From Candidatus Saccharimonadota bacterium (GTDB taxonomy: Archaea > Nanohalarchaeota > Nanosalinia > Nanosalinales > Nanosalinaceae): DNA of 32,000 nt. Positions 3,525 through 30,772 of the stretch are shown piece by piece; the stretch's first letter is position 1, and each line of letters starts with the position of its first letter. Made by a program: the position numbers and the translations under genes. The notes below the pieces were generated by a model. The model worked only from the letters and a program-made list of their open reading frames with translations. It was not told the origin of the DNA and made no database searches. The stretch is taken from contig CP012986.1 in assembly GCA_001761425.1 (NCBI GenBank), positions 870,001 through 902,000 on the forward strand. The letters run 5' to 3'.

Positions 3525-3558
3525 ATGTTATGCTGTGGGTGTGGTGGTTGAAAAAAGT

Positions 3559-5151: not shown

Positions 5152-5172
5152 GGTTATCTTTTCTCCTCGTTG

Positions 5173-5182
5173 AAATATAAGC
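5173..5182 (-). promoter_or_regulatory. TATA-box candidate for the 530-aa zinc-finger gene
   Basis: The minus strand reads GCTTATATTT, centred about 26 nt upstream of the ATG at 5151 and just after the giant gene stop (5186-5188). This could equally be a co-transcribed spacer (GGAG lies 13-16 nt upstream of the ATG). Confidence 0.3.
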
Positions 5183-5185
5183 TTG

Positions 5186-9300: not shown

Positions 9301-12300
9301 TATTTATGAAAGTATCACGATCCGAAAAGTTGATTTTATCTACATCTGCAGCACGAGGATCTGTCTCATCTATTGAAAGAGTTAATGATACATCTTCAAC
9401 ATCAACACGGCCTCCCATAACATTCCCTGTCAATGTTTTGGTATCTCCCGAGTTTGCTGTAACATCATCCAGTTCTACACTGTCCTGTTCCATATCGAGC
9501 TGTATATTAGCTCTATCTCTTACAGTAAAGTTGTATTCATCGCTTGTCCTTCTGTTGCCGTTTTCATCTACTGCCTCAAATCTTACTCCGTAGGTATGGT
9601 CGTTTGATGGAAGATCTCTTCCAAGTTTGTCAGGCTTGATCTCGTCCGAGAAGTCTCCTTGTGGCGATTGAATATTGAAGTCATCGTTTCCTACCCTGAT
9701 CTCCTTCTCTACATTATCTAGATACTTTGTTATAGTAATGTTCATCTGCTTGAGGCCTTCTGTGTTTGTCGTTCCTGCGTTGTCACTTACTGTTCCGTTT
9801 ATCGTGATATTGTTGCCGTTACCTGTTATTTCGGGAATTTCTATATTGCTGAAGGTAGGGGCAGGGTCTTTAACCGTTCCTTCAACAGGTATGTTAATTT
9901 GCTGGGGGCTACATTCAGATGGGGCTGTACATTCTATGGAGATGTTAGCTGAGTAATTACTGGGGATGTCTGTTGCGTACTCTGTAGTATAACCTACGGT
10001 GGCTGGAGGAGAACTTATCTGGTATTCATAGTCTGAGAAGGAGTCGATCGTGGATGAGTAAGATTCAGATCCGTGATCTGGGACTTTGGATTCGTTACTG
10101 AAAAACAGGTTATCATCATCACCCTGTGAAATCTGGCTTTCTACATCCCAGGAAAGTTCACGGTTACCGGTGTTTTCCAGTGTCAGTTCAAATAGGTCTT
10201 CTCTTGAATCAAGTTCAAGTGTCCCTAGTTTTACAGGGTTCGAGGCATTGATCTCGTCTGGTATTTGCACCTCTTCATCCAGAGCCCTCAGATCAGGATC
10301 CCATTTGGGCGAGTCCTTTACTTCGACGGTGATGTTTGCTGAGTTTGTCTCGTCCGCATCGTCAGAGTAAGACTTCAAAAGCGTGGAATAATTGCCTGGA
10401 GGAGTACCTTCTGGTATCTGACCGTTCATCTCGAAGATGCTTACGGTATCTCCGGTACCTCTGTCGTATCCGCCATCTTTAGCCCTGAAGAATCCATCAA
10501 TCCATGATTTGTTAAATCTGTCGCTGCTAACAGTCCATCCAATCCCTGTAGCAGTTCCTGTACCCTCGTTCTCTATCGTGAGGTTTGCGGCTCCGTCTGG
10601 CGATATGAAGTTTCCTGAAAAACCATCTTCATATGTCAGCGAAAGATTCTGCTGGAACAGAGGAAGCTTGCTGAGTGTCACAGAAAGTGTCACAGGATCA
10701 GAACTTCTCTTATTGAAGCCTCCCGAGGTATTAAATTCTGTGGAAATATTCAAGTTATAATCTGCCTGTGTAGAGGCCTCTGAAACATCTATTACGGCAT
10801 CGACCTCTCTTGTTTCCCCGGCGCTGATGTTGTAGTACTGTTTTACTGTCCTCCAGTCTCTTCCCCCTCTGTCTTCCAGTATCTTATCGGTTTCGTTGGC
10901 TTTCGGAAGCTCTTCTCCAAACACTTTCAGGCCTCTGACTTCCGTGTTTCCTGTGTTGGTGACATTTATCGGAACGGTTTTGTTCAATCCGTTGTTAAGG
11001 GTGACTCCCTGTACTGGAATATCATTTTGAGGGACTGAAACCTCGATATCTGTGGAGTCCTCTACCTCTACCACAGTTGTGTTTCTTGCTCTGATACCGT
11101 CTTCATCTGTGGAGTTTATGTTTACTTCGAAGCTGCCCGTGTTTTCAGGGGCGTTGAGACTTGTACTGTAGAATCCGGATTCGTCAGTTGAAACTAGATC
11201 GGTTTCACCTGTCTCTTCCAGTTTGACCTCTACAGATGCATTTACTCTCTCATCAGATAGGCTCTGTCTTACAGTGCCGTTGAGTTCAAACTCTCTTCCG
11301 AGGCCTACTGTTTGATCGCTCTTGATTGCTGATACTGAGCCGTTGGTGACCTGTAGTTTTAGTTCCGGAGAGTTAAGCTCTCTTAGGCCTTGAGAATCTT
11401 TTGCGTTTAATTCGAAACTGTATTCTCCTTCAGCATCGTAGATCTCGGAGATGTTTTCCTGTAATTTCCAGACTTCCTGTTTGTTCAGGTCTCTTTCATA
11501 GGTGTTTCCTTCCGGTGTCTGGATGTAGGCCCACATTCTTTCTATAGGATTTCCGTGTGATTCCAGAGTGGTGTTTATCTGGAACCTGTCCTCTGGATCA
11601 ACTGTTTTATCGCCGTTAGCGAGGTCTGTGATGTTGGAGGATGAGAATTTCAGGCTGGTAGTGACTGAGGTTTCGTTCAGGCCTTGAATTCCGTTGTTGT
11701 TGGTTACAAAGTATTCTATGTTTGATTCTCCGGAGAAGTCTGGTGCTGTGAAGGTTGTCTCAAAGGTTCCGTTTTCATCGACGGGTACTTCAGGTTCCGT
11801 GTTTTCTACGAGTACTTCTGTGTAGTTTATCTTTGCGTTGAATTTGCCGTTTTCTGTCTGGAAACTTGCTTTATTGGTTCCTGTACTGAGATTATCTAGC
11901 TTTTTGGTCTGGCTGTTTCCAGGAGTTATTCTTCCGGAGTAGTTGGCTTCCTGTTCGCCGTCTCCGTCTATATCGAGGCCTGGATCTTCAGTTGCGTATC
12001 TTCTTACCAGCCTCAGTTTTTCAATTATCGGTGCATCGGTGACATTGCTTTCCATCTGTACATTGAGGCGGAAGTCTTGGCTGTCCAGCATTGAGCCTGT
12101 GATTTCATATCTTGTCTGATCTTCGTCAAGCGGTATAGGATCTGAGTCTCCGCCTTCCGAGCTGATAACTTTTACCTCTGCACTCTGGTTCATGGTATCG
12201 GTTTCTGCCTCCAGGACGAGAGATTCTGTTCTTACCGTTTCAGAAAATGATTTGAGGCCTGTGGTCAGTTCCTGCTGCTCGTTTTTATCTCCTGCCCGGT

Positions 12301-15133: not shown

Positions 15134-15655
15134 TCTCAGGGTCTGGTTGCCTAGACTGTCTGTTGACTGTATCTTCGGAACCTCAAGAGTCAGGTTAAAG
15201 TATCCGTTACCGGATTCAGGTGTGACAGGTGAGTTTTCAGCTTCAGTTCCGTTGAAAAATACATTTACAGGGTTGTATGTCGAACCGTTCAGAGTTATCT
15301 TCTGTCCAGGGTTGACTATGGAGTCGTTTACTCCTGTCCAGCCCAGGGATCTGTTGTTTATATTGTATATATCATTGTCTTGCGGTGAGTCATCTATCCC
15401 TTCTTCGTTCTGAGTATTTAAGGTAAACCGCTTCAGGCCTACTGTAGGGTTTATCTGCTGGAAGAATGAGTATCCTCCTGAACTGTTAGTTACGACCTGG
15501 TTGGTATTCAGGTTCTGGCTTTGATTGAAGTAATTGAGCTCGATGCTCTGGTTATCATAGGGTAGACGGTTTGATCCTCTTGATCCGTCGTCCTCTTTAT
15601 GAGATAGCTGGAGTTCGAGAAAGATAGATCTTCGCCGGGTTTGAGAAGGAAATCA
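15134..15655 (-). other. in-frame upstream extension of the giant ORF and frame-change junction with the 766-aa ORF
   Basis: The 5186-15133 frame stays open for 173 codons upstream of its GTG, to a stop at 15653-15655. It encodes another copy of the repeat unit found in 15508-17808. The two frames overlap in 15511-15652, and the best junction is near 15614-15625. Confidence 0.7.
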
Positions 15656-17808
15656 GGTTGATTGTCTATTTCAATCTCTCTCAGGGAGATGTTCCACGAT
15701 TCCTGTCTGATCTGGCCGTTCAACCTTGTCATTGCTTTCAAGGTATAGTTCCCGAGATTTTGTTCCTCCTCTATCTGAAGAGTTTTTACAGAAGTCTCGA
15801 AGTAGCCATCAGTTCCTGGAGTCACATTCAGCCTGGACTCAAACCCTCCTGTCCTGTTCTCGAGGTATACCTCAACGCGGTTGTGAGCTGTTCCGTTCAG
15901 GCCTATCTTCTGCCCAGGGTCCAGGATCGTGTCATTGATATCCATCAGAGATATATTTTTTCTTCCGAGGCCTTCTATGCCGTTGGCGTTTTCAGCTTCT
16001 GTCCGGTAATATTTTCTGCCTTTTGTGAAGGGTACATCAGCTGATAGAGAGGATCCTCCGGTACTGTTGGTAGTGAATGTTTGAGAGTATATTTCGTTTC
16101 CTGAACTGAGTACTGTCCAGTTTGCTTCTTCACCGGCATAATCTGTGGTCTCTGTTGCACCAGAGCCGTCTTCTTTTACAAGTTCAAGTATTGAATCAGC
16201 CTCCAGAATCTGTGAAGGTTTCAGTATGTAATCAGAGAACTGTTGAACCTGTATATTTCTGTGTGATATCTGAAATGTCTCTGTAATTGTGTTACCTGAG
16301 ATTGTTGATGAAACCTCCATAGTGTAGTTCCCAAGATCTTCTTTTTCATTTATGTCAAGGCTGTTGACAGTTATGTTGTAAAAGCCGTCTGATGACCTTG
16401 GTTCTGTTTCACCTACCGCAGTTCCGTTAATCTTTACAGTTACGGTCGATGATGCTGTGCCGTTCACCTTGATAGGTTCTTCAGTGTTGACTATACTTTG
16501 ATTGATGAATGCTGAGAACGCTATCTGGCTCTCGACGGTTCCCTTGGTTGATTCCTCTTCTTTTACCTGGTTAGAGTTCGCGTTTCCACCCCATCCATTG
16601 TTCGGTAAGTCGGATGATCCAGGTCCTGGATCCGCAGTTACGGAGAGGCTTTCATCTTTTATGGAGTATTCGTAGTAGACATGTCCTCCACCTCCACCTC
16701 CGCCGAATGCGTCCTGTCCGCGGTCTATCTTCTCCATGTAGGTTCCTCCATCAGCCCTGACTTCTCCGTCGCCGAAGATTCCTCCTGAAGAAATCCATAT
16801 CGATCCTCCAGCTCCTCCACCCGGAGAGTACCCGGAAGAACCGAAGGAACCTCCTCCATCAAGTCCATTGGATAACACATTACCTGTGATGTTCACTTTG
16901 TTGCTTGCTACAAGCTTGATCGTTCCTCCACCGGATCCCATTCTGATATCATTCGGATTATTCTTCCTGTACTCGTCATTTGTCTCAATCCAGGCATCAG
17001 AATCTAGAGGATCCTGATCCGGGTCATCAAAATTCCCGTTGCCGTCCGTAGCATTCAGTATCTTCTGCCTCAGCTCACCGCCGTAATTGCCCGCTGAACC
17101 GTGACCTTCTTTATTGTCTACCCGAGAGAGTAGATATGTATCTATCTGTGCTCCTCCACCTGAACCGAAAGTACTGGGGTCCTCTGAAGTACCATAAGTA
17201 TTCGAGTTATCAGATCCGTACCCACCACCGTGACCGTAGTACTCACCGTTTTTGTACGAACCTCCTTTTCCACCGTGACCTCCGCCTCCTGCACCGGTGT
17301 TACTGTTCCCGTCACCGGAGACTCCTCCTCCAGGCCCACCTCCGAAACAGAAACCATCTGATGAAGAACCAAAGTTACAACTTCCCGAATTGGAGCTGGC
17401 TGACTGCCATCCAAGGCCTGAAGCATCTAGCACACCGCCTTCTTCGACTCTTATATTATACGCAGAGATGTTGATGTTAGCATGTACCGCACCGCCAGAT
17501 TTCACGATGAAATCTGCATCGTCCAGGGATACAGAGGCTCTTGGAGAATTACCTTCTTTCTTGTGATCGGTATAAAGCCTTCCTCCGGACTTAACAATAA
17601 TATCAGAGTCTCCTGTTGTCTCTTCGCCTGTAATATCCTGAGAACTTGTAATATTGCAGCTATCTCCTCCTGTCAGACTTCCAGAATCACAGGAAATCGC
17701 AGAAACAGGGCTTGCAAATACCACAAAAACCAGGATAGTCGCTAAGATAAATTTAGGTCCAGAACCGGTATAACTATGGTAGTCTATCGTCAAAAAGGAC
17801 ATCCTCAA
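15508..17808 (-). CDS. N-terminal part of the giant surface protein (signal/anchor helix, glycine-rich module, beta-sandwich repeats)
   Basis: 766-aa ORF (TTG at 17808, ATG at 17802). Hydrophobic N-terminus FILATILVFVVFASPVSA. Glycine-rich region. Two repeat units (IKVNGTASSTVTVKINGTAVGE...DGFYNITV...LGNYTMEV and IGLNGTAHNRVEVYLEN...DGYFETSV...LGNYTLKA) continue in the other frame toward 15133. Confidence 0.8.
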   Translation of the reverse strand: MRMSFLTIDYHSYTGSGPKFILATILVFVVFASPVSAISCDSGSLTGGDSCNITSSQDITGEETTGDSDIIVKSGGRLYTDHKKEGNSPRASVSLDDADFIVKSGGAVHANINISAYNIRVEEGGVLDASGLGWQSASSNSGSCNFGSSSDGFCFGGGPGGGVSGDGNSNTGAGGGGHGGKGGSYKNGEYYGHGGGYGSDNSNTYGTSEDPSTFGSGGGAQIDTYLLSRVDNKEGHGSAGNYGGELRQKILNATDGNGNFDDPDQDPLDSDAWIETNDEYRKNNPNDIRMGSGGGTIKLVASNKVNITGNVLSNGLDGGGSFGSSGYSPGGGAGGSIWISSGGIFGDGEVRADGGTYMEKIDRGQDAFGGGGGGGHVYYEYSIKDESLSVTADPGPGSSDLPNNGWGGNANSNQVKEEESTKGTVESQIAFSAFINQSIVNTEEPIKVNGTASSTVTVKINGTAVGETEPRSSDGFYNITVNSLDINEKEDLGNYTMEVSSTISGNTITETFQISHRNIQVQQFSDYILKPSQILEADSILELVKEDGSGATETTDYAGEEANWTVLSSGNEIYSQTFTTNSTGGSSLSADVPFTKGRKYYRTEAENANGIEGLGRKNISLMDINDTILDPGQKIGLNGTAHNRVEVYLENRTGGFESRLNVTPGTDGYFETSVKTLQIEEEQNLGNYTLKAMTRLNGQIRQESWNISLREIEIDNQPDFLLKPGEDLSFSNSSYLIKRTTDQEDQTVYPMITRASSSITSIKART
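16579..17601 (-). other. glycine-rich, probably beta-solenoid-like module
   Basis: Residues about 70-410 of the 766-aa ORF. Contains repeated IVKSGG(R/A) strands and tracts such as GGGPGGGVSGDGNSNTGAGGGGHGGKGGS, GSGGGTIKLVASNKVNITGNVLSNGLDGGGSFG, GGGAGGSIWISSGGIFGDGEVRADGG and FGGGGGGGH. Confidence 0.5.
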
Positions 17809-18397: not shown

Positions 18398-19027
18398 TTA
18401 TTCTTCCAGGTATTGATCCATGTTGTCATCTATGGCATCGATCTTTCTAGCCATTTTCCCTCTCTTCTCCTTGAGTTCTTTAATCTTACTCGTTACCTCT
18501 AATCTTTCATCAGTTAAACTCTCTATCTCCGAACTCAGTTCCTCTGTATCATTCTTAATCTTTCTCTTTCTCTCCTTCAAGGCCTTTATTTTCTCCTGAC
18601 CTTCCTTCCTCCTATCCCTCTGAAGATCAACCTGCCTTTTAACAGCTTTTTTCTTAGCTCTTAACTTTTCAAGCTCGTCCTTCCTATCCTGCCTTGGCTT
18701 CTCTTCATTTATAGAATCTTCTAATCTTTTCTCTATATCATCCAGGATCTCAAGTTTTTCATCAACTTTATCCAGGCTGAAATCCGTATTCCTTTCTTCC
18801 TTAAAGAAATCTAAGAGTTCCTCTCTACCTTTTAGCCTTATCTCTGCATCCAGGAGATCTCCAGCAGAGTAATCCGACTTTTCAAAATCTTCTTTTACTT
18901 TACCAGGATCCCTGTCAAGAAACTTCCGCAAACCACTGTCCACATCAGCATGAGACTTGGACTGATGTATATGGAGGCCTCTCTCCGAGTCAAACTCCTG
19001 ACCACAGAAATGACACTCCATAACCAA
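18398..19027 (-). CDS. C2H2 zinc-finger coiled-coil protein (third paralogue)
   Basis: 209-aa ORF. Likely start is the ATG at 19021 (MECHFCGQEFDSERGLHIHQSKSH = C-x2-C-x3-F-x5-L-x2-H-x4-H). The C-terminal half is a K/R/E-rich coiled coil resembling the C-terminus of 2580-3524. Confidence 0.75.
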   Translation of the reverse strand: MVMECHFCGQEFDSERGLHIHQSKSHADVDSGLRKFLDRDPGKVKEDFEKSDYSAGDLLDAEIRLKGREELLDFFKEERNTDFSLDKVDEKLEILDDIEKRLEDSINEEKPRQDRKDELEKLRAKKKAVKRQVDLQRDRRKEGQEKIKALKERKRKIKNDTEELSSEIESLTDERLEVTSKIKELKEKRGKMARKIDAIDDNMDQYLEE

Positions 19028-19120: not shown

Positions 19121-19243
19121 AGCCCCGAGAGGGATTTGAACCCTCGACCTGCTCCTTTCTTGCTTTGAGCACACTTTCAGTTGAAAGGTGCGGTAACCAT
19201 GCGGTACAAGGGAGCTGCTCTAGCCAGGCTGAGCTATCGAGGC
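19121..19243 (-). tRNA. tRNA-Thr(UGU) with a 48-nt intron at the canonical 37/38 position
   Basis: Hand-folded cloverleaf. Acceptor GCCUCGA/UCGGGGC (one G-U pair). D arm GCUC-AGCCUGGCUA-GAGC. Anticodon stem GCUCC/GGAGC with mature loop CUUGUAA. Variable loop AGGUC. T arm GAGGG-UUCAAAU-CCCUC. Discriminator U, CCA not encoded. Intron is CCGCAUGG...GCAAGAA. Isotype is less certain than the tRNA call. Confidence 0.8.
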
Positions 19244-19766: not shown

Positions 19767-21074
19767 TTAAACCGTTTCGAGTTCTTTCCCTTCGCTTCTC
19801 CATCCTGTGATTCCTTCTTTCAGGTTGTATGCTTCGAAGTTTTCTCTCTGTAGTAAGGCGGCGAATTTCTTGGATTTTCTGCCTCCTGGACAGACCAATA
19901 GTATTTTCTGGTTCTGGGCGAAAGGCTTTCCTGTTTCTATTAGTTCTTTGAGTTTTTCTTCGGGTATGTTAATGGAGCCTGGTATATGTGCCATCTGGTA
20001 TGCTGGATTAGAGCGTGAGTCTACGATAATAGGTCTTTCTTCTTCTATCCATTCTTCTGCGTTCTCTACTGAAATTTCTGGGACTTGTTCAAGCTCTTCT
20101 TCCGTTAGTGTTTCTGTGCCTTCTCTTTTGTCTCCGCCGAAGATTTCTGGTTTTCTTTCCTTGATGTAGGAGCGGTAGTGTTCGAATCGGTCGCAGGCGA
20201 AGAATACCGCTGTTTTCTGCTCTTCTACTTCCTGGTCTATTTCGGAAAGCTTTCGTTTCAGCGCTACGAAGTTTGCTCCCGTGGTCGGACCTGCGAGAAC
20301 CCCACATTCCCTGATAAGTGTCAGCATTCCTTCTAAGGCGTCTTTAGAGTCGATTACTGCTCTGTCGCTGTAGAGTTCTTTCTCGTAGAGGCCTACTTCC
20401 CACATTTCGTTTGCGGTTCTAATGCCTGGAATGAAGTCGTCCTGTGATGACACTATGCCTGTTACTTCGAGATCCGAATTCTCTTCCTTGAGCTTCTGTG
20501 CCACTCCTTTTGTACTGCCTGTTGTTCCTAGGCCTCCGAAAAGATAATCGACTTTCCCGAGGTCATCCAATATCTCCTGTCCTGTCTGCTCTCTATGAAC
20601 CTTGGTGTTTTTTTGGTTAGTATACTGTCCTGCACGAAAGTATTCTTCGCCCTCTCTGTTCATTAAACGGTCAAGATGCGTCAACGGATCATCCGGGTCA
20701 TTCGGGTCGGGGCACTCACTTTTACCTGGAAGTTCCTCTATTTCTGCTCCCATCATGATGAGTATGTCCTTGACCTCATCGACTTTGATACGGTTGGTAA
20801 TGGTCTTAAAATCAAGTCCGTGCGTTCCTGCAATTCCCTGGATTGCTTTAGCCGTGTTTCCACTTGAGGACTCCAGAAGCGTCTGATTCTTTTCCTTGAT
20901 TTCATCTATGTCGTCTCTGATTAGTTCCCAGGCTACACGGTCTTTGATTGAGCCGAAAGGACTGTGATACTCCAGCTTGACATAGACATCGATATTCTTC
21001 AGCCCTGTGACTTCTTTATCGAGTTTCAGCATCGGGGTTTCGCCGATCAGCTCCGTTATTGAATCAACTTTCAT
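19767..21074 (-). CDS. fold-type II PLP enzyme (cysteine synthase/SbnA-like) fused to a C-terminal rhodanese domain
   Basis: 435-aa ORF. PLP-lysine motif SPFGSIKDR (K44), SSGNTAKA, and glycine loop GGLGTTGST. The C-terminal ~100 aa form a rhodanese-like domain (IIVDSRSNPAYQMAHIPGSINIP) with an intact active-site loop CPGGRKS (Cys codon 19890-19892). Confidence 0.85.
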   Translation of the reverse strand: MKVDSITELIGETPMLKLDKEVTGLKNIDVYVKLEYHSPFGSIKDRVAWELIRDDIDEIKEKNQTLLESSSGNTAKAIQGIAGTHGLDFKTITNRIKVDEVKDILIMMGAEIEELPGKSECPDPNDPDDPLTHLDRLMNREGEEYFRAGQYTNQKNTKVHREQTGQEILDDLGKVDYLFGGLGTTGSTKGVAQKLKEENSDLEVTGIVSSQDDFIPGIRTANEMWEVGLYEKELYSDRAVIDSKDALEGMLTLIRECGVLAGPTTGANFVALKRKLSEIDQEVEEQKTAVFFACDRFEHYRSYIKERKPEIFGGDKREGTETLTEEELEQVPEISVENAEEWIEEERPIIVDSRSNPAYQMAHIPGSINIPEEKLKELIETGKPFAQNQKILLVCPGGRKSKKFAALLQRENFEAYNLKEGITGWRSEGKELETV

Positions 21075-21088
21075 TTCTTCTTCGACCT

Positions 21089-21694
21089 TTAATGTTGGTA
21101 AGCTAATTTCATCAATGCTCTTGGATCATGTCCTTGGGTTGTATGTGGGTTGATATCATCTCCGTGAATCCCTAGTTGTCTTTCTATGCTATTTCTAAAG
21201 CTGTTTACATCATCATGTTCTGATTCCGGACCAATCCAAGCTGTGCTGCCCTCCAAAATTACCTCGTCTAGAGGTTCATTGGTTACTTGGTGATTCACTT
21301 GGAACCCAATTAAGGGTTCATTTCCTTCTGCCGAATCAAGATAGTCCTCTATTACTTCTTTATCATCTAGAGGGAACTCAATATCCGAAGAAACATCTTC
21401 AGGGTATCCTGGACCTACTAATGTCATTCTATTCAATTCAACATTAGGCACATAGTTGAGCTGTTTTTTCACAGCCCCGAGTCTTTCTAGATCATGGTTA
21501 TCATATTCCAGATGAACATTACCGACTGGAACCGAGTCTCCGATATATAACTCAGATCCCTGAACTCTCTGGAGAAAGGTTTCTGGATTTTCAGTTTTCA
21601 CAGAACTCTGTTCAGGATCTAGATATACTAGACCATCATTTATCTGGTTTTGAAAATATTCGTCTGTGTTTCCATATTCAAAGTTGAATTTCAT
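21089..21694 (-). CDS. hypothetical acidic protein, unknown family
   Basis: 201-aa ORF. Its start overlaps the stop of the upstream decarboxylase gene by 4 nt, and it ends 14 nt before the next gene start. His/Asp-rich patches (HLEYDNHD, ESEHDD, IHGDDINPHTTQGHD). No motif recognised. Confidence 0.65.
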   Translation of the reverse strand: MKFNFEYGNTDEYFQNQINDGLVYLDPEQSSVKTENPETFLQRVQGSELYIGDSVPVGNVHLEYDNHDLERLGAVKKQLNYVPNVELNRMTLVGPGYPEDVSSDIEFPLDDKEVIEDYLDSAEGNEPLIGFQVNHQVTNEPLDEVILEGSTAWIGPESEHDDVNSFRNSIERQLGIHGDDINPHTTQGHDPRALMKLAYQH

Positions 21695-23112
21695 TTTAGT
21701 ATTTCTTCACCTGTGTAGAGGCTGTCTTTCTTCCAGTTGTTGTCGCCGTGAACCGCTACTTTGTCAGCGGGTTCGTGCTGGATGGTTCTGGACTCTCCGA
21801 AGTCCATATGGTATGCTGCGGTGTTCACGAAAACTACCAAGTCGTCTTCTTCTGGTTTTTCGTTGAGGAAGGTCTTGTGTTTGTAGATGAAGTCTGATTC
21901 CAGGCAGAGGTTGCCAACGAAATATACTCCGCCTTCAAGTTCTTCTCTGTCTTCGTCTCTATGGATGATGTATGGGTCTACCATCAATTCCCAGTTCTGC
22001 GGGTTGATGTTTGACTCGTTCATATCAAGTCCGACCAGTTTTTCTCCTTCAGCGTCTTCCTTTACGAAGTTTACTTTGCCGACTGTTATGCCTGCTAAGT
22101 CGAGTAATGCTCTTCCTGGCTCGATGTAAAGCTCTATCATATAGTCCCTGAGAAGGTCTCTGAACGTTCTCTCATAGCCTGGTATTTCCCTGGAAAGGAG
22201 TTTGCAGAGGTAGTCATCTTTGGCTGTTTCGTTGTAGTAGCTGTAAAGGTCGACTGAGCCTTTCACGCTCTGGTTTTCGGAACGCAGTCCGAAACTGTGG
22301 CTGTTCCAGGTTATTCCTTCTCTCTTACCTGCTACAGATTCCTGAATCGCTTCCAGGTATTCGCTCCATTCCTCTCCGCTCTCCAAGTAGTTTACTTTCA
22401 TTCCGCCTCCGATATCCAGTATCTGCGTTTGGTATCCTGCTAAGTGGAACTCTTTCACCAGGTCGAAGATGTTCTGAAGAGCGATAGCCTTCTTCCGCAT
22501 ATTCGCAGTGTCCAGGTGAAACGCAAAGCCCTGGAAGTTCACTGAACCGTATTCATCGAGCTTTCGGATTATCTCTTCTTTCTTTTGTGTAGGTATTCCA
22601 AAACGTGAATGTTTCTGGATCGCTTTCCTGTCCGGTGGAACGAAGTTATTCAACCGGATCAGGACATCAGTTTCAGTATCAAACTGTTGGCTGTATTCTT
22701 CGACTTTTTCGAATTCTTCAAAGCTATCGATATGTAGTGTGGATCCGTGACGGACTGCCAAACGGAGAAATTTTCTGTTTTTCGGCCCCGTAGCGAGTAT
22801 CTCTTTTCCCTTGAATCCTTCCGACAAAGCGTTTTTGAGTTCGTTTTCCGACGCCACATCTATCCCTATATCCTCTTTTCTGCCTTGAACAATCAGCGAT
22901 TCTGATTTATTGGCCTTGTGGGCGAAGAATATTTTGCCCTCAATTCCGTGTTCATCAAAGACATCTCTGAATGCCTGAATATTTTTTGAAAAGTTTTCTG
23001 GCAGCATTATATTCAAAGGAGAGCCGAAGCCATCTGCCAGTTCTTTCAGCGTTTCTTCATCTTGAACGATTTTGTCTACTACTTTGTTGGTTTTCGGAGT
23101 CAGTTCCAGCAT
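21691..23112 (-). CDS. type III PLP-dependent decarboxylase (Orn/DAP/Arg decarboxylase fold)
   Basis: 473-aa ORF. FFAHKANK (PLP lysine K66), GFAFHLDT, ILDIGGG, IEPGRAL, and GNLCLESD (the G..C...D substrate loop). TAATG overlap with the upstream gene. Confidence 0.85.
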   Translation of the reverse strand: MLELTPKTNKVVDKIVQDEETLKELADGFGSPLNIMLPENFSKNIQAFRDVFDEHGIEGKIFFAHKANKSESLIVQGRKEDIGIDVASENELKNALSEGFKGKEILATGPKNRKFLRLAVRHGSTLHIDSFEEFEKVEEYSQQFDTETDVLIRLNNFVPPDRKAIQKHSRFGIPTQKKEEIIRKLDEYGSVNFQGFAFHLDTANMRKKAIALQNIFDLVKEFHLAGYQTQILDIGGGMKVNYLESGEEWSEYLEAIQESVAGKREGITWNSHSFGLRSENQSVKGSVDLYSYYNETAKDDYLCKLLSREIPGYERTFRDLLRDYMIELYIEPGRALLDLAGITVGKVNFVKEDAEGEKLVGLDMNESNINPQNWELMVDPYIIHRDEDREELEGGVYFVGNLCLESDFIYKHKTFLNEKPEEDDLVVFVNTAAYHMDFGESRTIQHEPADKVAVHGDNNWKKDSLYTGEEILK

Positions 23113-24065
23113 TATACTTCACTCCAAGAGAACTCTTCATCTATCTGGGTTTTGACATCCCCGCAGGCATCCTTAATATGCTGTTTCTCAGAGACCTTGC
23201 GGTGGATTTCCTTTAGTTTCTCAAGTCGTTTATCAGGCTCGACTTTTCGATCCTCTGAGGTTTCCGCTATCCCCTGGAAGACCTGTTTTTCATCCGAGTT
23301 CAGTAGATCCAAGCTTAACGGGTTGTGCTGTTGTCGTGCCATCTTGATTTCGGATTTTCTCGGCAGATAACCGATTATCTCCGAGTCGATGTTTTCTTCT
23401 AGGTATTCTCTGTCGTGCTTGCAGTCTACCTTGTTGCCGACCACAGCTACGTTCTCGAAAACCTCGGCCTCTTCTGAAAGCTCTTTATACTGTTCATAAA
23501 CTTTGATTCCCTCGGGTGTAGGCTCAACTACCAGAACTATCAAATCAAACTGTGCATGGAGAGTATTAGCAAATGCGTCAGTCCCTGCTACCATATCAGA
23601 TACGAGCCATTCATCCTCTTCCAGCTTCAAGTGCGACAGAATGTTTTCGAACGATGTCAGTGCGGTGTGGTAGCAGCTCGCTCCGATGCCTTCTTTCTCG
23701 TATGTTCCGATGTGCATAAACCAGTTATCGCCGTATTCGGTCGCTAACTCGCTAAGAATCTTGTTGTCTTCTTCCAGTTTGACAAAGTTTGAACCTCTTC
23801 CTGGTGGAGTGCTTTTCACGACATTTGACTGGTCTTCAATACGAGGATTATCGCCTTTCACATACTCTCTGACTTTCTTCGAGTTCTCCTCTTTTGATAC
23901 TGCAAGCTCGGCTTCAAAATCTGCCTCTATCAGCTCTGCGAGATGCTGGTTTATGTCCGCATCTACTGCCAGCAACTGCTTATCCTGCTTTTTAAGGTAA
24001 TCTATAAATAATGCGGTAAATGTTGATTTCCCGCTTCCGCCTTTTCCTACAAATGCTGTTCTCAT
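23112..24065 (-). CDS. CooC/MinD-family P-loop ATPase (metal-centre maturation factor-like)
   Basis: 317-aa ORF. Deviant Walker A VGKGGSGKST, then LLAVDADINQHLAE as in CooC-type proteins. GASCYH lies where I would align the CooC C-x-C metal site. ATGA overlap with the upstream ORF. Confidence 0.8.
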   Translation of the reverse strand: MRTAFVGKGGSGKSTFTALFIDYLKKQDKQLLAVDADINQHLAELIEADFEAELAVSKEENSKKVREYVKGDNPRIEDQSNVVKSTPPGRGSNFVKLEEDNKILSELATEYGDNWFMHIGTYEKEGIGASCYHTALTSFENILSHLKLEEDEWLVSDMVAGTDAFANTLHAQFDLIVLVVEPTPEGIKVYEQYKELSEEAEVFENVAVVGNKVDCKHDREYLEENIDSEIIGYLPRKSEIKMARQQHNPLSLDLLNSDEKQVFQGIAETSEDRKVEPDKRLEKLKEIHRKVSEKQHIKDACGDVKTQIDEEFSWSEV

Positions 24066-24553
24066 GCTATCGCCTCTGCTGTTTCATACCAGTCGTTGGC
24101 TCTGTCTTGTATTCCTGCGGATTCGTAGGTTTGACCGATATGGCGGACGGTTTCGAGAACGTCTCTCCTGCTTGTATAGTCTGTTGCCTGTTCTGCCATC
24201 GAAGTGAACCATTCGTGGTAGTCTTCGGCATCTTGTTTGGATTCAAGTTCCTGAACTGTTTCTGCATCAAAGCTCTGAACTCCTTCTCTGAAACTTTCTA
24301 CAGCTATCTGATAAGTATTTTCACCAAGTTCTGCTGTTTGTCCTGCTTCTAATACTTCTGCTCCGTGAACTGCCTGAGTAAGCGGCTGATCTTGGGCTAC
24401 TTGGACGGCGTTAAGTCTTTGTTCGACATATCTTTCTGTTGCTTGTTCGAGTAGCTGGTCTTCTCCCCAGATTTCGTTTACTTCCTGTGCGACTTCGTAT
24501 GCTCCGTCAGTAGCTTCAAATGACTCTGGGACTTCGCCACGGCGTTCATACAT
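24062..24553 (-). CDS. hypothetical very acidic helical protein
   Basis: 163-aa ORF translationally coupled on both sides (8-nt and 4-nt overlaps). Rich in E/Q/A. No motif recognised. Confidence 0.6.
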   Translation of the reverse strand: MYERRGEVPESFEATDGAYEVAQEVNEIWGEDQLLEQATERYVEQRLNAVQVAQDQPLTQAVHGAEVLEAGQTAELGENTYQIAVESFREGVQSFDAETVQELESKQDAEDYHEWFTSMAEQATDYTSRRDVLETVRHIGQTYESAGIQDRANDWYETAEAIA

Positions 24554-25637
24554 CGTTCTGACATCTTCCTGTCGTGCCTGTTCGAGGTTCTCCTCTGCAA
24601 GGGATAGCAGCCGACCTTGAAACCCCAGGAGCTAAAATCTGATTCTGTTCAGGTTCAACGGTTGAAAGAGCATCCTTGATTTCATCGTATACTTCGTCAT
24701 CGTCCTCAATTACTGTGACACCTGGTTTAGAGCCTTCGCCATCCACTTCTCTTAACCTGACTTCACCGTCAACAAGGTCAAACACATTTCCTTCAGGAGT
24801 AAAACCTTTGCAACGAAGACCGTAATCTCCTACTGCGTCTTGAACCTGTTCTACGAACTCTTCTTCGTTTAGGTCTCTGTCAACGCTTACAGAGTATTTC
24901 TCTCCGTGCTGATGAGTATGTCCGTGATCGTGACTATGTTCGTCTTCTCCATGGTGGTCGCATCCACAGTCATCACTGTGGAAATCATTCATTCCAATCC
25001 CTGAGAAAACATCGATATGAGATGTCAGTAGCGAGGAATTCCAGTCATTTCGTTCGGAACTGATGGTCTGCCAGTCTGTCTCTCCAATACTGTAGACAGG
25101 TTTTTCAGGAGCAACATTCTGGAGATATTCATCTGCCTGCTCTATTTCATCTTCGTTTCCTTCTGTAAATGTGTATATTACTGCGTTTGATGAATTGATT
25201 GACCTATCGAGTCCATCCATAGCCTGTGTTGATTCTAATCTGTCGAGCGGTAGCAGCATCAAGTGGTTCTGAAGATCTACGCCTTCGAGTTCTGATACAT
25301 TTCCTGCGGCTTCCCAGGGATCCGCGAAACCTGTAGGTTCGACAAGTAAATGGTCGGAATCTCTGATTGTATTCCAGTTTTCTTCCAGTGTTTTCTCAAG
25401 GTCTCCTTGCCCGTCACAGCCGATGCATACATCTGGTATGCCTGATTTGGATTCATCTTCTACGCTGTATTTGTCGGTATCGACCATCGCCCCGATGTCA
25501 TTTGCGATCACATAGGGTTCGTCTCCTTGCTCCAGCATTCCTTCGACAAGTTGGTCGCCTAAAGTAGTTTTTCCTGCACCGAGCCGTCCTGTCAGTATAG
25601 TTGCGTCAACAGATTCGTCTTGAGTTCTTCTCATCAT
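24546..25637 (-). CDS. COG0523 (CobW/YjiA/ZigA-type) G3E metallochaperone GTPase with His/Cys-rich insert
   Basis: 363-aa ORF. Walker A GRLGAGKTT, VIANDIGA, VCIGCDG (in place of the usual C-x-C-C), LLVEPTGFADP. His/Cys-rich stretch HSDDCGCDHHGEDEHSHDHGHTHQHGE at 24906-24980. CobW_C-like tail. Confidence 0.8.
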   Translation of the reverse strand: MMRRTQDESVDATILTGRLGAGKTTLGDQLVEGMLEQGDEPYVIANDIGAMVDTDKYSVEDESKSGIPDVCIGCDGQGDLEKTLEENWNTIRDSDHLLVEPTGFADPWEAAGNVSELEGVDLQNHLMLLPLDRLESTQAMDGLDRSINSSNAVIYTFTEGNEDEIEQADEYLQNVAPEKPVYSIGETDWQTISSERNDWNSSLLTSHIDVFSGIGMNDFHSDDCGCDHHGEDEHSHDHGHTHQHGEKYSVSVDRDLNEEEFVEQVQDAVGDYGLRCKGFTPEGNVFDLVDGEVRLREVDGEGSKPGVTVIEDDDEVYDEIKDALSTVEPEQNQILAPGVSRSAAIPCRGEPRTGTTGRCQNDV

Positions 25638-25671
25638 ATCTTTGTTAAAGAATCTAAAGTTTTTTAATAAT

Positions 25672-25704
25672 AAGAGTTAAGCTAGAAGTATAATCTTAAT
25701 ACTT
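25672..25704. promoter_or_regulatory. imperfect inverted repeat in the divergent promoter region (candidate NikR operator)
   Basis: AAGAGTTAAG (25672-25681) - N13 - CTTAATACTT (25695-25704), with 8 of 10 positions complementary. Lies in the 68-nt A/T-rich spacer between the 25637 (-) and 25706 (+) starts. No match to known NikR consensus sequences was established. Confidence 0.2.
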
Positions 25705-25705
25705 A

Positions 25706-26137
25706 ATGATAAATCTGAAACAGAAAACTATCAACGCCAACCATCGACTCTACGAGGCAGAACAAAATGCAAGACAAGAGCAAATACGGAACATAGAAAT
25801 CAGAAAACTTAATCCGCACGAAGAAGTAATTAAAGAAAATCTGAAAAAAGTTCTAACATCTCTCAAAGTCGAAGAAAGACTGAAAGAACCGATAATCGTA
25901 GATAAAGAAACCAGAGTAATCCTTGACGGTCATCACAGAGTGAAAGCATTCGCTCTGCTTGGACTAAAGAAGATTCCCTGCAAACTTGTCGACTATAATT
26001 CAAACGAAATAACAGTTGAGTCGCGTCGGAATCGAAAGATAACCAAGGAAGAGGTTATAGAGAAAGGCCTCAGCGATGAGCTTTTCCCTCCGAAGACGTC
26101 AAAACACAAGATAGGTCGGAAAATTAACAATTCTTAA
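25706..26137 (+). CDS. ParB/sulfiredoxin-like domain protein
   Basis: 143-aa ORF. IEIRKLNPHEE...EPIIVDKETRVILDGHHRVKAFALLG resembles the ParB N-terminal (ParBc) fold motif. Confidence 0.6.
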   Translation: MINLKQKTINANHRLYEAEQNARQEQIRNIEIRKLNPHEEVIKENLKKVLTSLKVEERLKEPIIVDKETRVILDGHHRVKAFALLGLKKIPCKLVDYNSNEITVESRRNRKITKEEVIEKGLSDELFPPKTSKHKIGRKINNS

Positions 26138-26163: not shown

Positions 26164-26547
26164 ATGAGCGTTGTAAGCGTATCACTAAACGACAAGCTGC
26201 TCGAAGACATTGACGATTTCATGGACGAACAAGGCTTCTCAGGTAGAAGTGAAGTGATGAGAACAGCTGTCAGAGCTTTACTCAGGGATAGAAAAGAAAT
26301 ATCAGGCCTTGAAGGAACAGTGGATGCTGTAATAATAGTGACGCACGAAGATGAAGATTCAGGAGAGATTGACGATATACAGCACGACTACCAGGAGACG
26401 ATCAGGACTCAGCTTCACAATCACATGGACGAACACAAATGTTTAGAGGTTTTTATGCTTCACGGAGAAGCAGAAAAAGTCAAAGAGCTATACAACAAGT
26501 TCCAGGCATCGAGTAAGGTTGAACAGGCGAAAATAATCGTGCCTTGA
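26164..26547 (+). CDS. nikR: nickel-responsive transcriptional regulator NikR
   Basis: 127-aa ORF. N-terminal ribbon-helix-helix (VSVSLNDKLLEDIDDFMDEQGFSGRSEVMRTAVRALL). C-terminal domain has H74, H85, H87 and C93, with the same spacing as the E. coli NikR high-affinity Ni ligands H76, H87, H89 and C95. Confidence 0.85.
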   Translation: MSVVSVSLNDKLLEDIDDFMDEQGFSGRSEVMRTAVRALLRDRKEISGLEGTVDAVIIVTHEDEDSGEIDDIQHDYQETIRTQLHNHMDEHKCLEVFMLHGEAEKVKELYNKFQASSKVEQAKIIVP

Positions 26548-29255: not shown

Positions 29256-29642
29256 TCAGTCCAGGTCCTCTACATTTACATCGCTGTTACCTGGTTCAAA
29301 GGCTGACGGCAGGTGGATATGATATACTCCCTCGGATTTCTCGATGACAAGCGGCATCTCTTCCAGGAGACGTGAAACGTTGATATTGTATACTCCTTCT
29401 TCCTCAACGCTGATGGAGTCCAGATCGAACTCTAGCTTGATGTTGCCTTTTTCCTTGCTTCCCTCGGCTATCATGCTCTGGATATCTGTCTTGACCTCTT
29501 CTTTCTCTTCTTCAAGTTCTTCTTCAGAAAGCGATTCCTCGTTTTCGTACATGAACAGGGAGGAACCGCATTCACAGCCGTCTATAAGTTCATCGGAATC
29601 GTCTTCATATGTAAGACCGCAGTTCATGCATCTGTGTGGCAT
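29256..29642 (-). CDS. archaeal Zn-ribbon protein (DUF2072-like)
   Basis: 128-aa ORF. N-terminus MPHRCMNCGLTYEDDSDELIDGCECGSSLFMYE matches my memory of the conserved archaeal Zn-ribbon family found next to DUF2073 and a small GTPase. Confidence 0.7.
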   Translation of the reverse strand: MPHRCMNCGLTYEDDSDELIDGCECGSSLFMYENEESLSEEELEEEKEEVKTDIQSMIAEGSKEKGNIKLEFDLDSISVEEEGVYNINVSRLLEEMPLVIEKSEGVYHIHLPSAFEPGNSDVNVEDLD

Positions 29643-29738
29643 TCAAAACCTACCTCCATAACTTTTTTCCCGTCTAAAAATTCGAACAGCTTCTTCCGCT
29701 TTACCCTGGGAAGACTGTAGAAAACGTCTCATTTTTGC

Positions 29739-30128
29739 CTAGTTGCTTTCGTCTTCGAGTTTGGCGAGGAACGAAACAGTATCTTTCTCCTCTTTGATTT
29801 TCTCCATCACACGTGAGTTGCCAACGATCGTGAGGCCTCTTCTGTATTCCTCGTTAAGAAATTTCTGGTAGACCAGTCTCTTCGCCTTGTCTAACCGTGT
29901 ATTTCCTGCGTCAAGGCCTAGAAACTCTACGCCTGGAAAGTCTTCGTCGACCTGTTCCATTGAACTCTGGATCAGTTCGCTTTTTTCTTCAGGTGTCCAG
30001 GCCTCTTCAAGTACAAGTACTGCGTTTTCCTGGACTTTTTCGAGTACTATGTCCAGTTTTTCGTTGAACTGCTGGTCTGTCAGTTTCTCCTTTGACAGGA
30101 ACTCGATGGTGACTCCGTCCTCTCCCAT
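29739..30128 (-). CDS. DUF2073-like conserved archaeal protein
   Basis: 129-aa ORF. IEFLSKEKL...VLVLEEAWTPEEKSELIQSSMEQVDEDFPGVEF resembles the DUF2073 pattern. TAATG overlap with the upstream GTPase gene. Confidence 0.65.
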   Translation of the reverse strand: MGEDGVTIEFLSKEKLTDQQFNEKLDIVLEKVQENAVLVLEEAWTPEEKSELIQSSMEQVDEDFPGVEFLGLDAGNTRLDKAKRLVYQKFLNEEYRRGLTIVGNSRVMEKIKEEKDTVSFLAKLEDESN

Positions 30129-30772
30129 TACGTTAACCTTTCAATTATTTCCTCATAAAGTTTGTCGATGTTTTCTCCTTCTTTCGCAGAGATTTCAAGC
30201 ACTGGATGCTGTGGGAATGCGTCTCTGACTCTTTCCGGATCTGCATCCTCCAGATCTGTCTTGTTAGCCAGTACAAGGATCGGTATGTCTTTTGCTTCCA
30301 GGTTGCCGATGATCGTAACGTTTACCTGTGTGTATGGATCTTCTGTGGAGTCAAAGATTACGAGACATGCGTCTACATCGTCAAGATACTTGATAGCTTC
30401 TACTATGCCTTTTGTTGCTTCCTTGGCTCTTCCTTTTGCCTGTTCCTCTTCAAGACCGTGCTCTGTGAAGTCCTTGAAGTCTACATTCGTGGATATTCCA
30501 GGCATGTCCAGAAGGTTGAGATCCAGTGTTCTACCGTCCTCGGATTCTATTGTGACTTTCTCCTTTTTTTCAACGGCTCTGGTCTCGTGCGGTACTTCGG
30601 ATACGTTGCTCATCTCCTCGCCTGTCAGGTCCTGGGAGATCTGGTTCGCTAACGTGGACTTGCCTGCGTTAGGAGGGCCGTAGATCCCTATCCCGATATC
30701 ATCTTTTCCTGAACCACTGAACAAGTTGCTGATAAGTTTCCTGAGGCGAGATATCATTTTGACACCGCTCAA
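30128..30772 (-). CDS. small GTP-binding protein
   Basis: 214-aa ORF (TTG at 30772, ATG at 30758). G1 GPPNAGKST, G3 DMPG, G4 NKTD, G5 SAK. Confidence 0.85.
   Translation of the reverse strand: MSGVKMISRLRKLISNLFSGSGKDDIGIGIYGPPNAGKSTLANQISQDLTGEEMSNVSEVPHETRAVEKKEKVTIESEDGRTLDLNLLDMPGISTNVDFKDFTEHGLEEEQAKGRAKEATKGIVEAIKYLDDVDACLVIFDSTEDPYTQVNVTIIGNLEAKDIPILVLANKTDLEDADPERVRDAFPQHPVLEISAKEGENIDKLYEEIIERLT

Follow-up and report, generated by a model that had tools for sequence, protein, structure and literature searches.

An operon beside nikR in Nanohaloarchaea archaeon SG9 carries a widespread PLP-enzyme and CooC-like ATPase module that may make a small metal ligand from O-phosphoserine

What do two metallochaperone-type nucleoside triphosphatases (NTPases), a decarboxylase and a rhodanese-fused enzyme, the latter two dependent on pyridoxal 5'-phosphate (PLP), do together in one operon next to a nickel regulator? 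The question is raised by a stretch of 32,000 nucleotides from Nanohaloarchaea archaeon SG9 (contig CP012986.1 of assembly GCA_001761425.1, positions 870,001 to 902,000 of the forward strand), referred to below as the window. Within it, six tightly packed minus-strand open reading frames (ORFs) face a small kinase-like gene and nikR across a short spacer. A preliminary description of the locus could not map this combination to a known pathway and offered, as candidate roles, synthesis of a small N/S-donor metal ligand or cofactor precursor under nickel control, or persulfide-dependent assembly of a metal centre. That interpretation is partly supported by our analysis. We give an even chance to the reading that the operon is a nanohaloarchaeal, nickel-regulated version of a widespread, uncharacterised module that builds a small metal-binding amino acid or amine of the aminoethyl type from O-phospho-L-serine (OPS). 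The small ligand under nickel control thus stays the best reading, with its product and the binding of NikR both deduced indirectly. The features on which the argument draws are as follows.

24062-25637, minus strand: ancestral gene of a COG0523-type G3E NTPase with a P-loop, a His/Cys-rich linker, a CobW_C-like strand region and an extra acidic helical C-terminal domain, split in SG9 by a 2-nt deletion into a 363-residue ORF (25637-24546) and a 163-residue ORF (24553-24062)
24065-23112, minus strand: CooC-like deviant-Walker-A ATPase of 317 residues, with a CbiA/MinD-type P-loop and Cys131-Tyr-His133
23112-21691, minus strand: fold-type III PLP decarboxylase of 473 residues, similar to diaminopimelate (DAP) decarboxylase, with FAHKANK, EPGRAL and GNLCLESD motifs
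21694-21089, minus strand: acidic ORF of 201 residues between the decarboxylase and PALP-rhodanese genes, a hypervariable insert specific to the lineage
21074-19767, minus strand: PALP-rhodanese, 435 residues, a CysM/SbnA-like PLP enzyme of fold type II joined to a single-domain rhodanese, with Lys44 in GSIKDR and Cys396 in CPGGRKS
25638-25705, no strand: divergent promoter/operator spacer of 68 bp with two TTAA-N15-TTAA elements (25645-25667 and 25677-25699) and an AAGTAT-N7-ATACTT inverted repeat (25686-25704)
25706-26137, plus strand: miniature SerK/SbnI-type kinase, basic (isoelectric point 9.8), 143 residues, with a PHE catalytic-Glu motif, DGHHR and a C-terminal PKTSKH
26164-26547, plus strand: NikR nickel-responsive repressor of 127 residues, with NikR_C (PF08753, 67 bits) and ribbon-helix-helix (PF01402) domains

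Along the operon, the ORFs overlap by 8, 4, 1 and 4 nt in turn, and one 14-nt gap precedes the last. The coordinates, overlaps and motifs given for the six packed genes in the preliminary description hold, whereas its reading of the 8-nt overlap as translational coupling does not: since a 2-nt deletion split the COG0523 gene in SG9, that overlap is a frameshift scar. The ancestral operon is one of five genes, and the six ORFs of SG9 reflect a single split gene.

Genome neighbourhoods were compared for the 80 best loci out of 472 decarboxylase relatives in species-representative genomes. In every locus with downstream sequence, a PALP-rhodanese gene lies immediately after the decarboxylase gene, and because the pair recurs in this way the arrangement is far from chance. 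The pair is found in Nanohaloarchaea, a Candidate Phyla Radiation (CPR) bacterium, Clostridia and other Bacillota, Obscuribacterales/Melainabacteria, Planktothrix, Chloroflexota, proteobacterial metagenome-assembled genomes (MAGs), Micromonospora and Actinoplanes. Clustering of neighbouring ORFs identified recurrent partners: a SufS-family cysteine desulfurase after PALP-rhodanese (65 loci), a methyltransferase of some kind (43 loci), a CooC-like ATPase before the decarboxylase (39 loci) and a Fur-family regulator (36 loci). A metal regulator or transporter cluster is present in 62 of 84 loci, the recurrent transporter types being ZnuA/ABC-3, Nik/Opp-ATPase, ArsP_1/DUF1980 and CbiMQO. SufS, the Fur-family regulator, the methyltransferases, a flavoprotein with a GNAT acetyltransferase, and the metal ABC transporters are partners absent from the preliminary description.

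The composition of the module varies by lineage. A gut Clostridia contig carries a compact operon of fur, cooC-like, decarboxylase, PALP-rhodanese and sufS genes, and in a CPR bacterium fur diverges from the cooC-like, decarboxylase and PALP-rhodanese genes. In Alkaliphilus metalliredigens, MntR/MntABC-type genes lie on one side of the module and CbiMQO on the other, and actinomycete loci consist of decarboxylase, PALP-rhodanese and SufS genes without the ATPase. Obscuribacterales loci add a flavin amine-oxidase/CrtI-type protein, a GNAT, an Asp/Asn-hydroxylase-like protein, two methyltransferases, a BT1/MFS transporter and a 514-residue protein with a DGNHR motif, whose resemblance to the SerK-like protein is confined to the surroundings of that motif (E 0.016) and which has no match in the PDB. 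The six-gene unit of SG9 is one lineage's extended form of a smaller core that is very widespread. The preliminary view of the six genes as a conserved set fails, since the COG0523 gene occurs only in Nanohaloarchaea and is deleted in one close relative, and the 201-residue ORF is variable; the orthologues of the decarboxylase and PALP-rhodanese genes do co-localise elsewhere.

The link to metals and the absence of a described pathway are both borne out. Public annotations of the module proteins are generic, NCBIfam (June 2026 release) holds no equivalog for any core protein, and we found no paper on this gene combination in the full-text literature. A plasmid collection yielded two Streptomyces matches, both in unannotated records. 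Upstream of seven bacterial operons no riboswitch or leader RNA was detected, only tRNAs. An arsenic-related function, suggested by an ArsP_1 permease, a TehB-like methyltransferase and ArsA-like matches, was rejected, as the permease occurs in three loci only and the regulators belong to the Fur family or are NikR rather than ArsR.

The ATPase had been described as CooC/MinD-type, and this identification is confirmed: its P-loop is of CbiA/MinD type and its best PDB match is CooC1 (3KJE, E 1e-8). The deviant Walker A motif GKGGSGKST is present, with K8, G9, G10, G12 and K13 invariant in the family alignment. Where CooC1 reads qCYC, the SG9 protein reads sCYH, so that the Cys-x-Cys metal motif of the CooC dimer interface is not present; the aligned columns read C-Y-H instead. 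All of 12 diverse family members have C131 and H133, and in a set of 57 each of the two residues reaches at least 90% conservation. The protein shares with CooC, the ATPase that inserts nickel into carbon monoxide dehydrogenase (CODH), the motif GKGGxGK[ST], the fold family and the alignment columns of the metal site, and differs from it in the Cys-x-His substitution, in an insert of ~60 residues with an invariant TTPP, in its PLP-enzyme neighbour and in having no nearby genes for CODH or acetyl-CoA synthase (ACS). Neither the window nor the recurrent neighbour families found at 164 related loci include CODH/ACS genes. A role in CODH maturation was accordingly rejected, given the missing CODH gene and the altered CxC motif. 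The preliminary remark that no target metalloenzyme is present is true of the window, yet the conserved neighbour of this ATPase is the PLP-rhodanese enzyme.

Metagenome contigs were also scanned in reverse, with the ATPase family as the query; of the 58 loci with enough downstream sequence, 47 have a PALP or PALP-rhodanese gene downstream. Nineteen of the 58 read ATPase, decarboxylase, PALP-rhodanese; in 28 the ATPase is followed directly by a longer PALP-rhodanese subfamily; and 11 show neither order. Many of these loci have a Fur-family gene upstream, and several include bacterial mini-SerK genes. Since two PALP-rhodanese subfamilies share the ATPase as a neighbour, the deepest conserved pair is the CooC-like ATPase with PALP-rhodanese, and the decarboxylase and SufS mark the subfamily to which SG9 belongs.

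PALP-rhodanese, described earlier as a cysteine-synthase/SbnA-like enzyme fused to a rhodanese, bears out that assignment with Pfam scores of 150 bits for PALP and 63 bits for Rhodanese. Its PLP lysine motif GSIKDR is kept as NPFGS.KD across 62 sequences, and the rhodanese cysteine is at least 90% conserved in the family profile. The protein also carries a conserved cysteine in an 'ECPDP' loop and a PGIR motif. Its scores stay below family level for SbnA (TIGR03945, 147.8 bits against a trusted cut-off of 349.95) and below the equivalog level for cysteine synthases (cysKM 149.1 against 344, CysM 135 against 413, cysK 130 against 351 bits). The second subfamily, of ~480-530 residues, lies directly after the same ATPase family without a decarboxylase (L102-L172, for example L127 1812-3395 and L166 443-3703; L numbers denote related loci), with a Fur-family gene and sometimes a mini-SerK upstream. 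It matches PDB entries 8H4H/8H4Q ('Rhodanese domain-containing protein') at E 9e-95. The SG9 protein aligns with it over the full length at 121 bits and 25% identity, and common to the two subfamilies are SSGNT, the 'CPDP' loop cysteine, PG[IV]RT and a rhodanese C-x-x-G-x-x-S loop; the eukaryote-looking homologue 8H4H has QPAP at the 'CPDP' position. Some gut-type members of the second subfamily (479 residues) lack a recognisable rhodanese cysteine loop.

The decarboxylase was likewise called correctly as a type III PLP decarboxylase. It matches PF02784 (Orn_Arg_deC_N, the N-domain of Orn/DAP/Arg decarboxylases) at 99 bits, has all the named motifs, and shows K66, E331-P-G and C403 invariant in the family alignment; its C-L-E-S-D is the canonical C-E-S with a leucine inserted. 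It is part of a large and well-defined subfamily, with 598 homologues at E<=1e-10. Its best PDB matches are DAP decarboxylases, with alignments that span the N-terminal half only, and it does not reach the LysA equivalog level (TIGR01048 lysA, 152 bits against a cut-off of 297.9). An identity as the LysA of lysine biosynthesis was rejected on this score and on the strict linkage to PALP-rhodanese. Between the two enzymes lies the 201-residue ORF, which indeed belongs to no known family, having no match in Pfam or NCBIfam. Exhaustive HMMER searching over 1.84 billion representatives gave only two relatives, one close and one syntenic at 26% identity, and a word-indexed search of 5.8 billion clusters gave just the close one. 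The ORF recurs at 86% identity in L003 and at 26% in L091 (471-1130), where the flanking decarboxylase is 92% identical; L011 and L093-L098 lack it. AlphaFold gave no usable model of it, with a predicted local distance difference test score (pLDDT) of 37. In L013, the same slot between the decarboxylase and PALP-rhodanese genes is occupied by a 670-nt filler (989-1663).

On the divergent side of the spacer, the gene previously described as ParB/Srx-like does encode a ParB_N domain, but is more exactly a miniature serine kinase of the SerK/SbnI type. Against NCBIfam it matches SerK at 4.7e-17 (62 bits against a cut-off of 380) and SbnI at 1.3e-7. It aligns with SerK of T. kodakarensis (PDB 5X0B, 1.8e-9) through the N-terminal PHE and DGHHR motifs and the C-terminal PKTxxH, with ~100 central SerK residues missing, and so falls short of the full-length two-domain architecture of ~240 residues. 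In the family alignment, H38, E39, D74-G-H-H, K130, T131 and H134 vary little or not at all. The AlphaFold model (pLDDT 88) predicts a SerK/SbnI fold: the nine best Foldseek matches are all SerK/SbnI, with a template modelling (TM) score of 0.72 to 5X0B, and ParB, Noc and sulfiredoxin rank behind them. Homologues of the mini kinase also occur inside bacterial versions of the module. Judged by homology and modelled fold, this 143-residue protein probably supplies OPS.

The next gene confirms the divergent nikR of the preliminary description, with its NikR_C and ribbon-helix-helix domains. The protein retains the H..(10)..HxHxxxHxC pattern of P. horikoshii NikR (2BJ1, E 2e-20), and with it the ligands of the His3Cys high-affinity nickel site. 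NikR adjoins the module in several nanohaloarchaeal contigs (L010, L011, L016, L093-L096) and is probably the regulator of the divergent operon. Both matches to TTAA-N15-TTAA in the 32-kb window, where ~0.9 would be expected, fall in the spacer, which is strongly conserved across six nanohaloarchaeal loci. Another such element precedes an operon for a ZigA-like cobW protein in L008. In L010 (3561-4326), NikR faces a ZnuABC-type transporter and has a glyoxalase-family gene after it, a neighbourhood that hints at a wider nickel regulon.

The first gene of the operon was correctly recognised as a COG0523 GTPase with a His/Cys-rich insert. The cobW/CobW-HypB-UreG domain (PF02492) scores 61.3 bits against a cut-off of 20.7 over residues 12-181, the P-loop reads GRLGAGKTT, and the His/Cys-rich stretch is HSDDCGCDHHGEDEHSHDHGHTHQHGE. 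The 163-residue ORF, which has no Pfam or NCBIfam match and had been taken for a gene of its own, is the C-terminal domain of this gene: in L093, L094 and L098, which are 85-89% identical to SG9, both parts lie in one uninterrupted frame of ~525 residues. DNA alignment against these three loci places the SG9 deletion, GCTGC--TATCC, between window positions 24607 and 24606; it may be a real mutation or an assembly error. Fused ORFs of 497-541 residues occur in L003, L008, L010, L093, L094 and L098, and distant nanohaloarchaeal relatives measure 497-516 residues.

This NTPase has several unusual features. The conserved metal-binding motif of COG0523 proteins, GCxCC, is not present: SG9 reads VCIGCDGQGD, a CxxC without the CC, and L003 reads VCMACNTEG. 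The NKxD motif appears degenerate, with none recognisable in AVIYTFTEGNED. Pfam does not detect CobW_C in the SG9 protein, though a strand-rich region follows the His-rich linker, and NCBIfam equivalogs reach 34 bits against a cut-off of 332. In common with the COG0523 metallochaperones ZigA, YciC/ZagA, YeiR and CobW it has the cobW-domain P-loop, a His-rich linker and a metal-regulated context, and it differs from them in its CxxC for CxCC, the apparently degenerate NKxD, the added acidic C-terminal domain of ~160 residues and extremely fast evolution. Among the loci compared, the gene is restricted to Nanohaloarchaea, where two alleles only 23-25% identical separate L003, L010, L095, L096 and L099 from L093, L094 and L098, on contigs that are 84-92% identical in the adjacent CooC-like and decarboxylase genes. 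All but ~35 codons of its N-terminus are deleted in L011. This pattern suggests that the gene is swapped like a cassette or evolves very fast. L008 carries, next to the module, a separate operon (3350-7056) of a ZigA-like COG0523 paralogue (426 bits) and two flavoprotein genes.

Gene content, motifs, conserved linkage and the predicted fold of the kinase are direct observations; the substrates, the product, the part played by the NTPases and the binding of NikR are deduced from them. On that basis the proteins might act together as follows. Going by homology and fold, the mini SerK/SbnI-like kinase would phosphorylate L-serine to OPS. The PLP domain of PALP-rhodanese would then expel the phosphate to leave an aminoacrylate, to whose beta-carbon a nucleophile is joined. 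This could be an amino-acid amine, in the manner of SbnA, aspergillomarasmine A (AMA) synthase, Fda4 and Tln5, or a persulfide sulfur carried on the rhodanese cysteine, for which SufS, encoded next to it in most bacterial loci, might be the supplier. Either route would yield a diamino-dicarboxylate with the shape of diaminopimelate (isosteric), from which the DAP-decarboxylase-like enzyme, like SbnH, would take off one alpha-carboxylate to give a 2-aminoethyl chelating unit of the ethylenediamine or aminoethyl-thioether type. More speculatively, the CooC-like ATPase with its Cys/His site and the nanohaloarchaeal COG0523 NTPase may load or unload the ligand, or metallate PALP-rhodanese. Finally, NikR, or a Fur-family protein in bacteria, would switch the operon according to metal supply, as suggested by gene adjacency and the operator-like spacer. 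Whether PALP-rhodanese forms a C-N or a C-S bond is evenly balanced in our judgement: the conserved rhodanese cysteine and the adjacent SufS favour C-S chemistry, while the Fda4 precedent, the flavoprotein and GNAT partners and the lack of a SufS gene within the 32-kb window of SG9 favour C-N chemistry.

The closest characterised parallels come from OPS-dependent pathways. In staphyloferrin B synthesis, SbnI provides OPS and SbnH decarboxylates an intermediate that contains 2,3-diaminopropionate (Dap). The analogy to SbnA and SbnH drawn in the preliminary description is strengthened by the SerK/SbnI-type identity of the divergent kinase gene: the SbnI/SbnA/SbnH system and the SG9 locus share a free serine kinase of ParB fold, a cysteine-synthase-family PLP enzyme, a fold-type III decarboxylase and a metal-regulated cluster. 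As that description stated, Pfam matches in the window include no IucA/IucC-type synthetase (SbnC/E/F in staphyloferrin B), SbnB-like dehydrogenase or transporter. Further differences from staphyloferrin B are the rhodanese fusion of the PLP enzyme, the 143-residue miniature kinase, control by NikR or Fur-family proteins, and the added CooC-like and COG0523 NTPases. A cluster for a siderophore made by non-ribosomal-peptide-synthetase-independent (NIS) synthetases or for an opine metallophore was rejected because the synthetases are absent; no IucA/IucC, CntL/CntM-type or opine dehydrogenase genes occur among the Pfam matches of the window or the annotated recurrent neighbour families. The archaeal pathway of SerK and OPS sulfhydrylase also has a serine kinase that feeds OPS to an enzyme of the CysK/CysM family, and Mycobacterium CysM uses the protein-bound sulfur donor CysO, to which a rhodanese persulfide could be comparable here. 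To both of these the module adds a decarboxylase, SufS, metal NTPases and metal-sensor regulators. The [S,S]-ethylenediamine disuccinate (EDDS) cluster contains SbnA-like and DAP-decarboxylase-like genes; it is not known to have a rhodanese fusion, SufS or CooC-like ATPase. In line with the reading favoured here, this zincophore cluster of Amycolatopsis japonicum is metal-repressed, by Zur, and its product is an ethylenediamine-type aminocarboxylate (PMC6103462). Zur regulons typically include metallophore clusters and COG0523 genes (PMC6103462).

A fungal enzyme offers the nearest architectural precedent. Fusarium Fda4, a PLP enzyme of the cysteine-synthase family, carries a rhodanese-like domain and joins OPS and L-Ala; the flavin adenine dinucleotide (FAD) oxidoreductase Fda3 turns its product into L-2,3-diaminopropionate, and a GNAT is encoded in the same cluster (PMC12751119). 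Other amines are used in OPS beta-substitution by SbnA, CmnB, AMA synthase and Tln5 (bioRxiv 10.1101/2025.10.30.685158). Fda4, the sole characterised enzyme found that combines PALP with a rhodanese-like domain, makes a C-N bond. The fungal Fda4/Fda3/Fda5 Dap module resembles ours in its rhodanese-type PLP enzyme and, as in the Obscuribacterales loci, in an FAD oxidoreductase and GNAT; both Fda4 and AMA synthase use OPS, and AMA-type products are metal chelators. By analogy, the SerK/SbnI-like kinase next door and the Fda4-like architecture together hint that PALP-rhodanese may use OPS and an amine nucleophile. The SG9 enzyme differs in belonging to a separate, shorter subfamily that is strictly coupled to the decarboxylase and usually to SufS, and a CooC-like ATPase has not been reported in fungal Dap systems. 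OPS-based synthesis of chelators or Dap-type compounds is thus already known; the new element is the strict pairing of an OPS-type module with a Cys/His CooC paralogue.

Several observations weigh against this ligand pathway. Its substrates and product are deduced from genes, and the PALP domain of SG9 is equally near SbnA and CysK/CysM by score (148 against 149 bits) and only distantly related to the 8H4H-type subfamily. A conserved rhodanese cysteine with an adjacent SufS is left unexplained by a pure C-N pathway. The window holds no SbnB/Fda3-type oxidoreductase, NIS synthetase or CntL/CntM homologue. No exporter or importer is encoded in the window, the minimal gut Clostridia operon or the CPR locus; minimal operons without transporters point to a ligand that stays inside the cell no less than to a secreted metallophore. 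As to regulation, the case for NikR binding to the spacer comes from gene adjacency and a conserved operator-like sequence, the bacterial Fur-family regulators cannot be typed as Zur, Nur, Fur or PerR, with PerR models scoring equal to Fur, and the gut operon is flanked by oxidative-stress genes (glutathione peroxidase, thioredoxin-reductase-like and desulfoferrodoxin).

An alternative is that the module serves sulfur assimilation, as an OPS-dependent synthase of cysteine, cysteine persulfide or a low-molecular-weight thiol of the archaeal SerK and OPS-sulfhydrylase type. The rhodanese would deliver sulfane sulfur from thiosulfate or SufS, the decarboxylase would yield cysteamine or another thiol amine for redox or metal buffering, and the NTPases would merely be co-regulated. 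The SerK-type kinase suits this account, as Thermococcus SerK opens a route from serine to cysteine, and so do the top PALP scores with cysKM and CysM models, the CysM-like PGIR motif, the conserved rhodanese cysteine, the genuine SufS-family desulfurase adjacent in 65 loci, and the PerR-like scores and oxidative-stress neighbours just described. A cysteine-consuming SufS beside a cysteine-making enzyme, however, would form a futile pair, and cysteine synthesis alone requires neither a strictly linked decarboxylase nor a dedicated CooC-like ATPase. With Fda4 forming a C-N bond and a metal context of NikR, MntR-type genes, ZnuA/ABC-3, CbiMQO and ZigA-like cobW, we regard sulfur assimilation as rather unlikely. 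The deep conservation of the ATPase/PALP(-rhodanese) pairing over two subfamilies would also fit assembly of a metallocentre or cofactor, in which the CooC-like ATPase, together with COG0523 in Nanohaloarchaea, puts nickel or zinc into PALP-rhodanese or its sulfur-containing product. The invariant Cys-x-His at the CooC metal site, the extra 'CPDP'-loop cysteine of both prokaryotic subfamilies (QPAP in 8H4H) and the lack of any need for a transporter in minimal operons agree with such a role, and SufS with a rhodanese is a classic sulfur relay in cofactor synthesis. Actinomycete loci nevertheless do without the ATPase, no metal-binding motif was recognised in PALP-rhodanese or the decarboxylase, no client enzyme is co-located, and the account is built by inference throughout; we consider it distinctly unlikely. 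It seems improbable, too, that the Cys/His CooC paralogue, aided in Nanohaloarchaea by the COG0523 protein, is a dedicated metal insertase of this pathway that either metallates PALP-rhodanese through its 'CPDP'-loop and rhodanese cysteines or loads nickel or zinc into an N/S-donor product of SufS, PALP-rhodanese and the decarboxylase.

The PLP enzymes and NTPases could instead have unrelated jobs and share no more than a metal-starvation promoter. COG0523 genes are typical of Zur regulons, where they stand beside unrelated enzymes (PMC6103462), and the nanohaloarchaeal COG0523 gene is dispensable, being deleted in L011 and allelically replaced elsewhere. The ATPase gene, in contrast, lies directly upstream of the decarboxylase or PALP-rhodanese gene in CPR bacteria, Clostridia, Melainabacteria, a proteobacterial MAG and Archaea. 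Since its position is kept across phyla and its coding sequence overlaps those of its neighbours in SG9, the linkage is much tighter than regulon membership, and mere co-regulation seems highly improbable.

The remainder of the window contains features separate from the operon. Directly downstream, at 19121-19243 on the minus strand, lies a 123-nt tRNA that probably contains an intron (Rfam 52 bits, no ARAGORN call). A giant ORF of 3315 residues (5186-15133, minus strand) has Laminin_G, DUF87 and HerA-type matches, and the next gene after it (15508-17808, minus strand) encodes a Gly-rich, secreted-looking protein of 766 residues; both are typical of the giant surface or interaction proteins of nanohaloarchaea. 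Two proteins combine C2H2-type zinc fingers with long coiled coils and give weak SMC/Rad50-like matches (3559-5151 and 18398-19027, both minus strand). The origin-associated proteins OapC and OapB are encoded at 29256-30128 (minus strand), adjoining a GTPase at 30128-30772, and suggest a replication origin near the right end of the window.

If the insertase reading were true, a previously unknown metal-ligand cofactor would be common to DPANN archaea, CPR bacteria, gut Clostridia and Melainabacteria. The compact five-gene operon of Clostridia is a directly testable system. Should the module make a small chelator from OPS, as we favour, it would represent an unrecognised and phylogenetically very broad route, present in DPANN, CPR, abundant gut Clostridia, Melainabacteria and actinomycetes. 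Its chemistry would be the OPS chemistry seen in the precursors of staphyloferrin B, in EDDS and in aspergillomarasmine A, compounds that attract attention as zincophores and metallo-beta-lactamase inhibitors. In addition, it would provide the first functional context for a large Cys-x-His CooC-like family without CODH, and would widen the client range of metallochaperone NTPases. That the module is kept in minimal genomes otherwise poor in biosynthesis suggests its importance for metal economy in symbiotic lifestyles.

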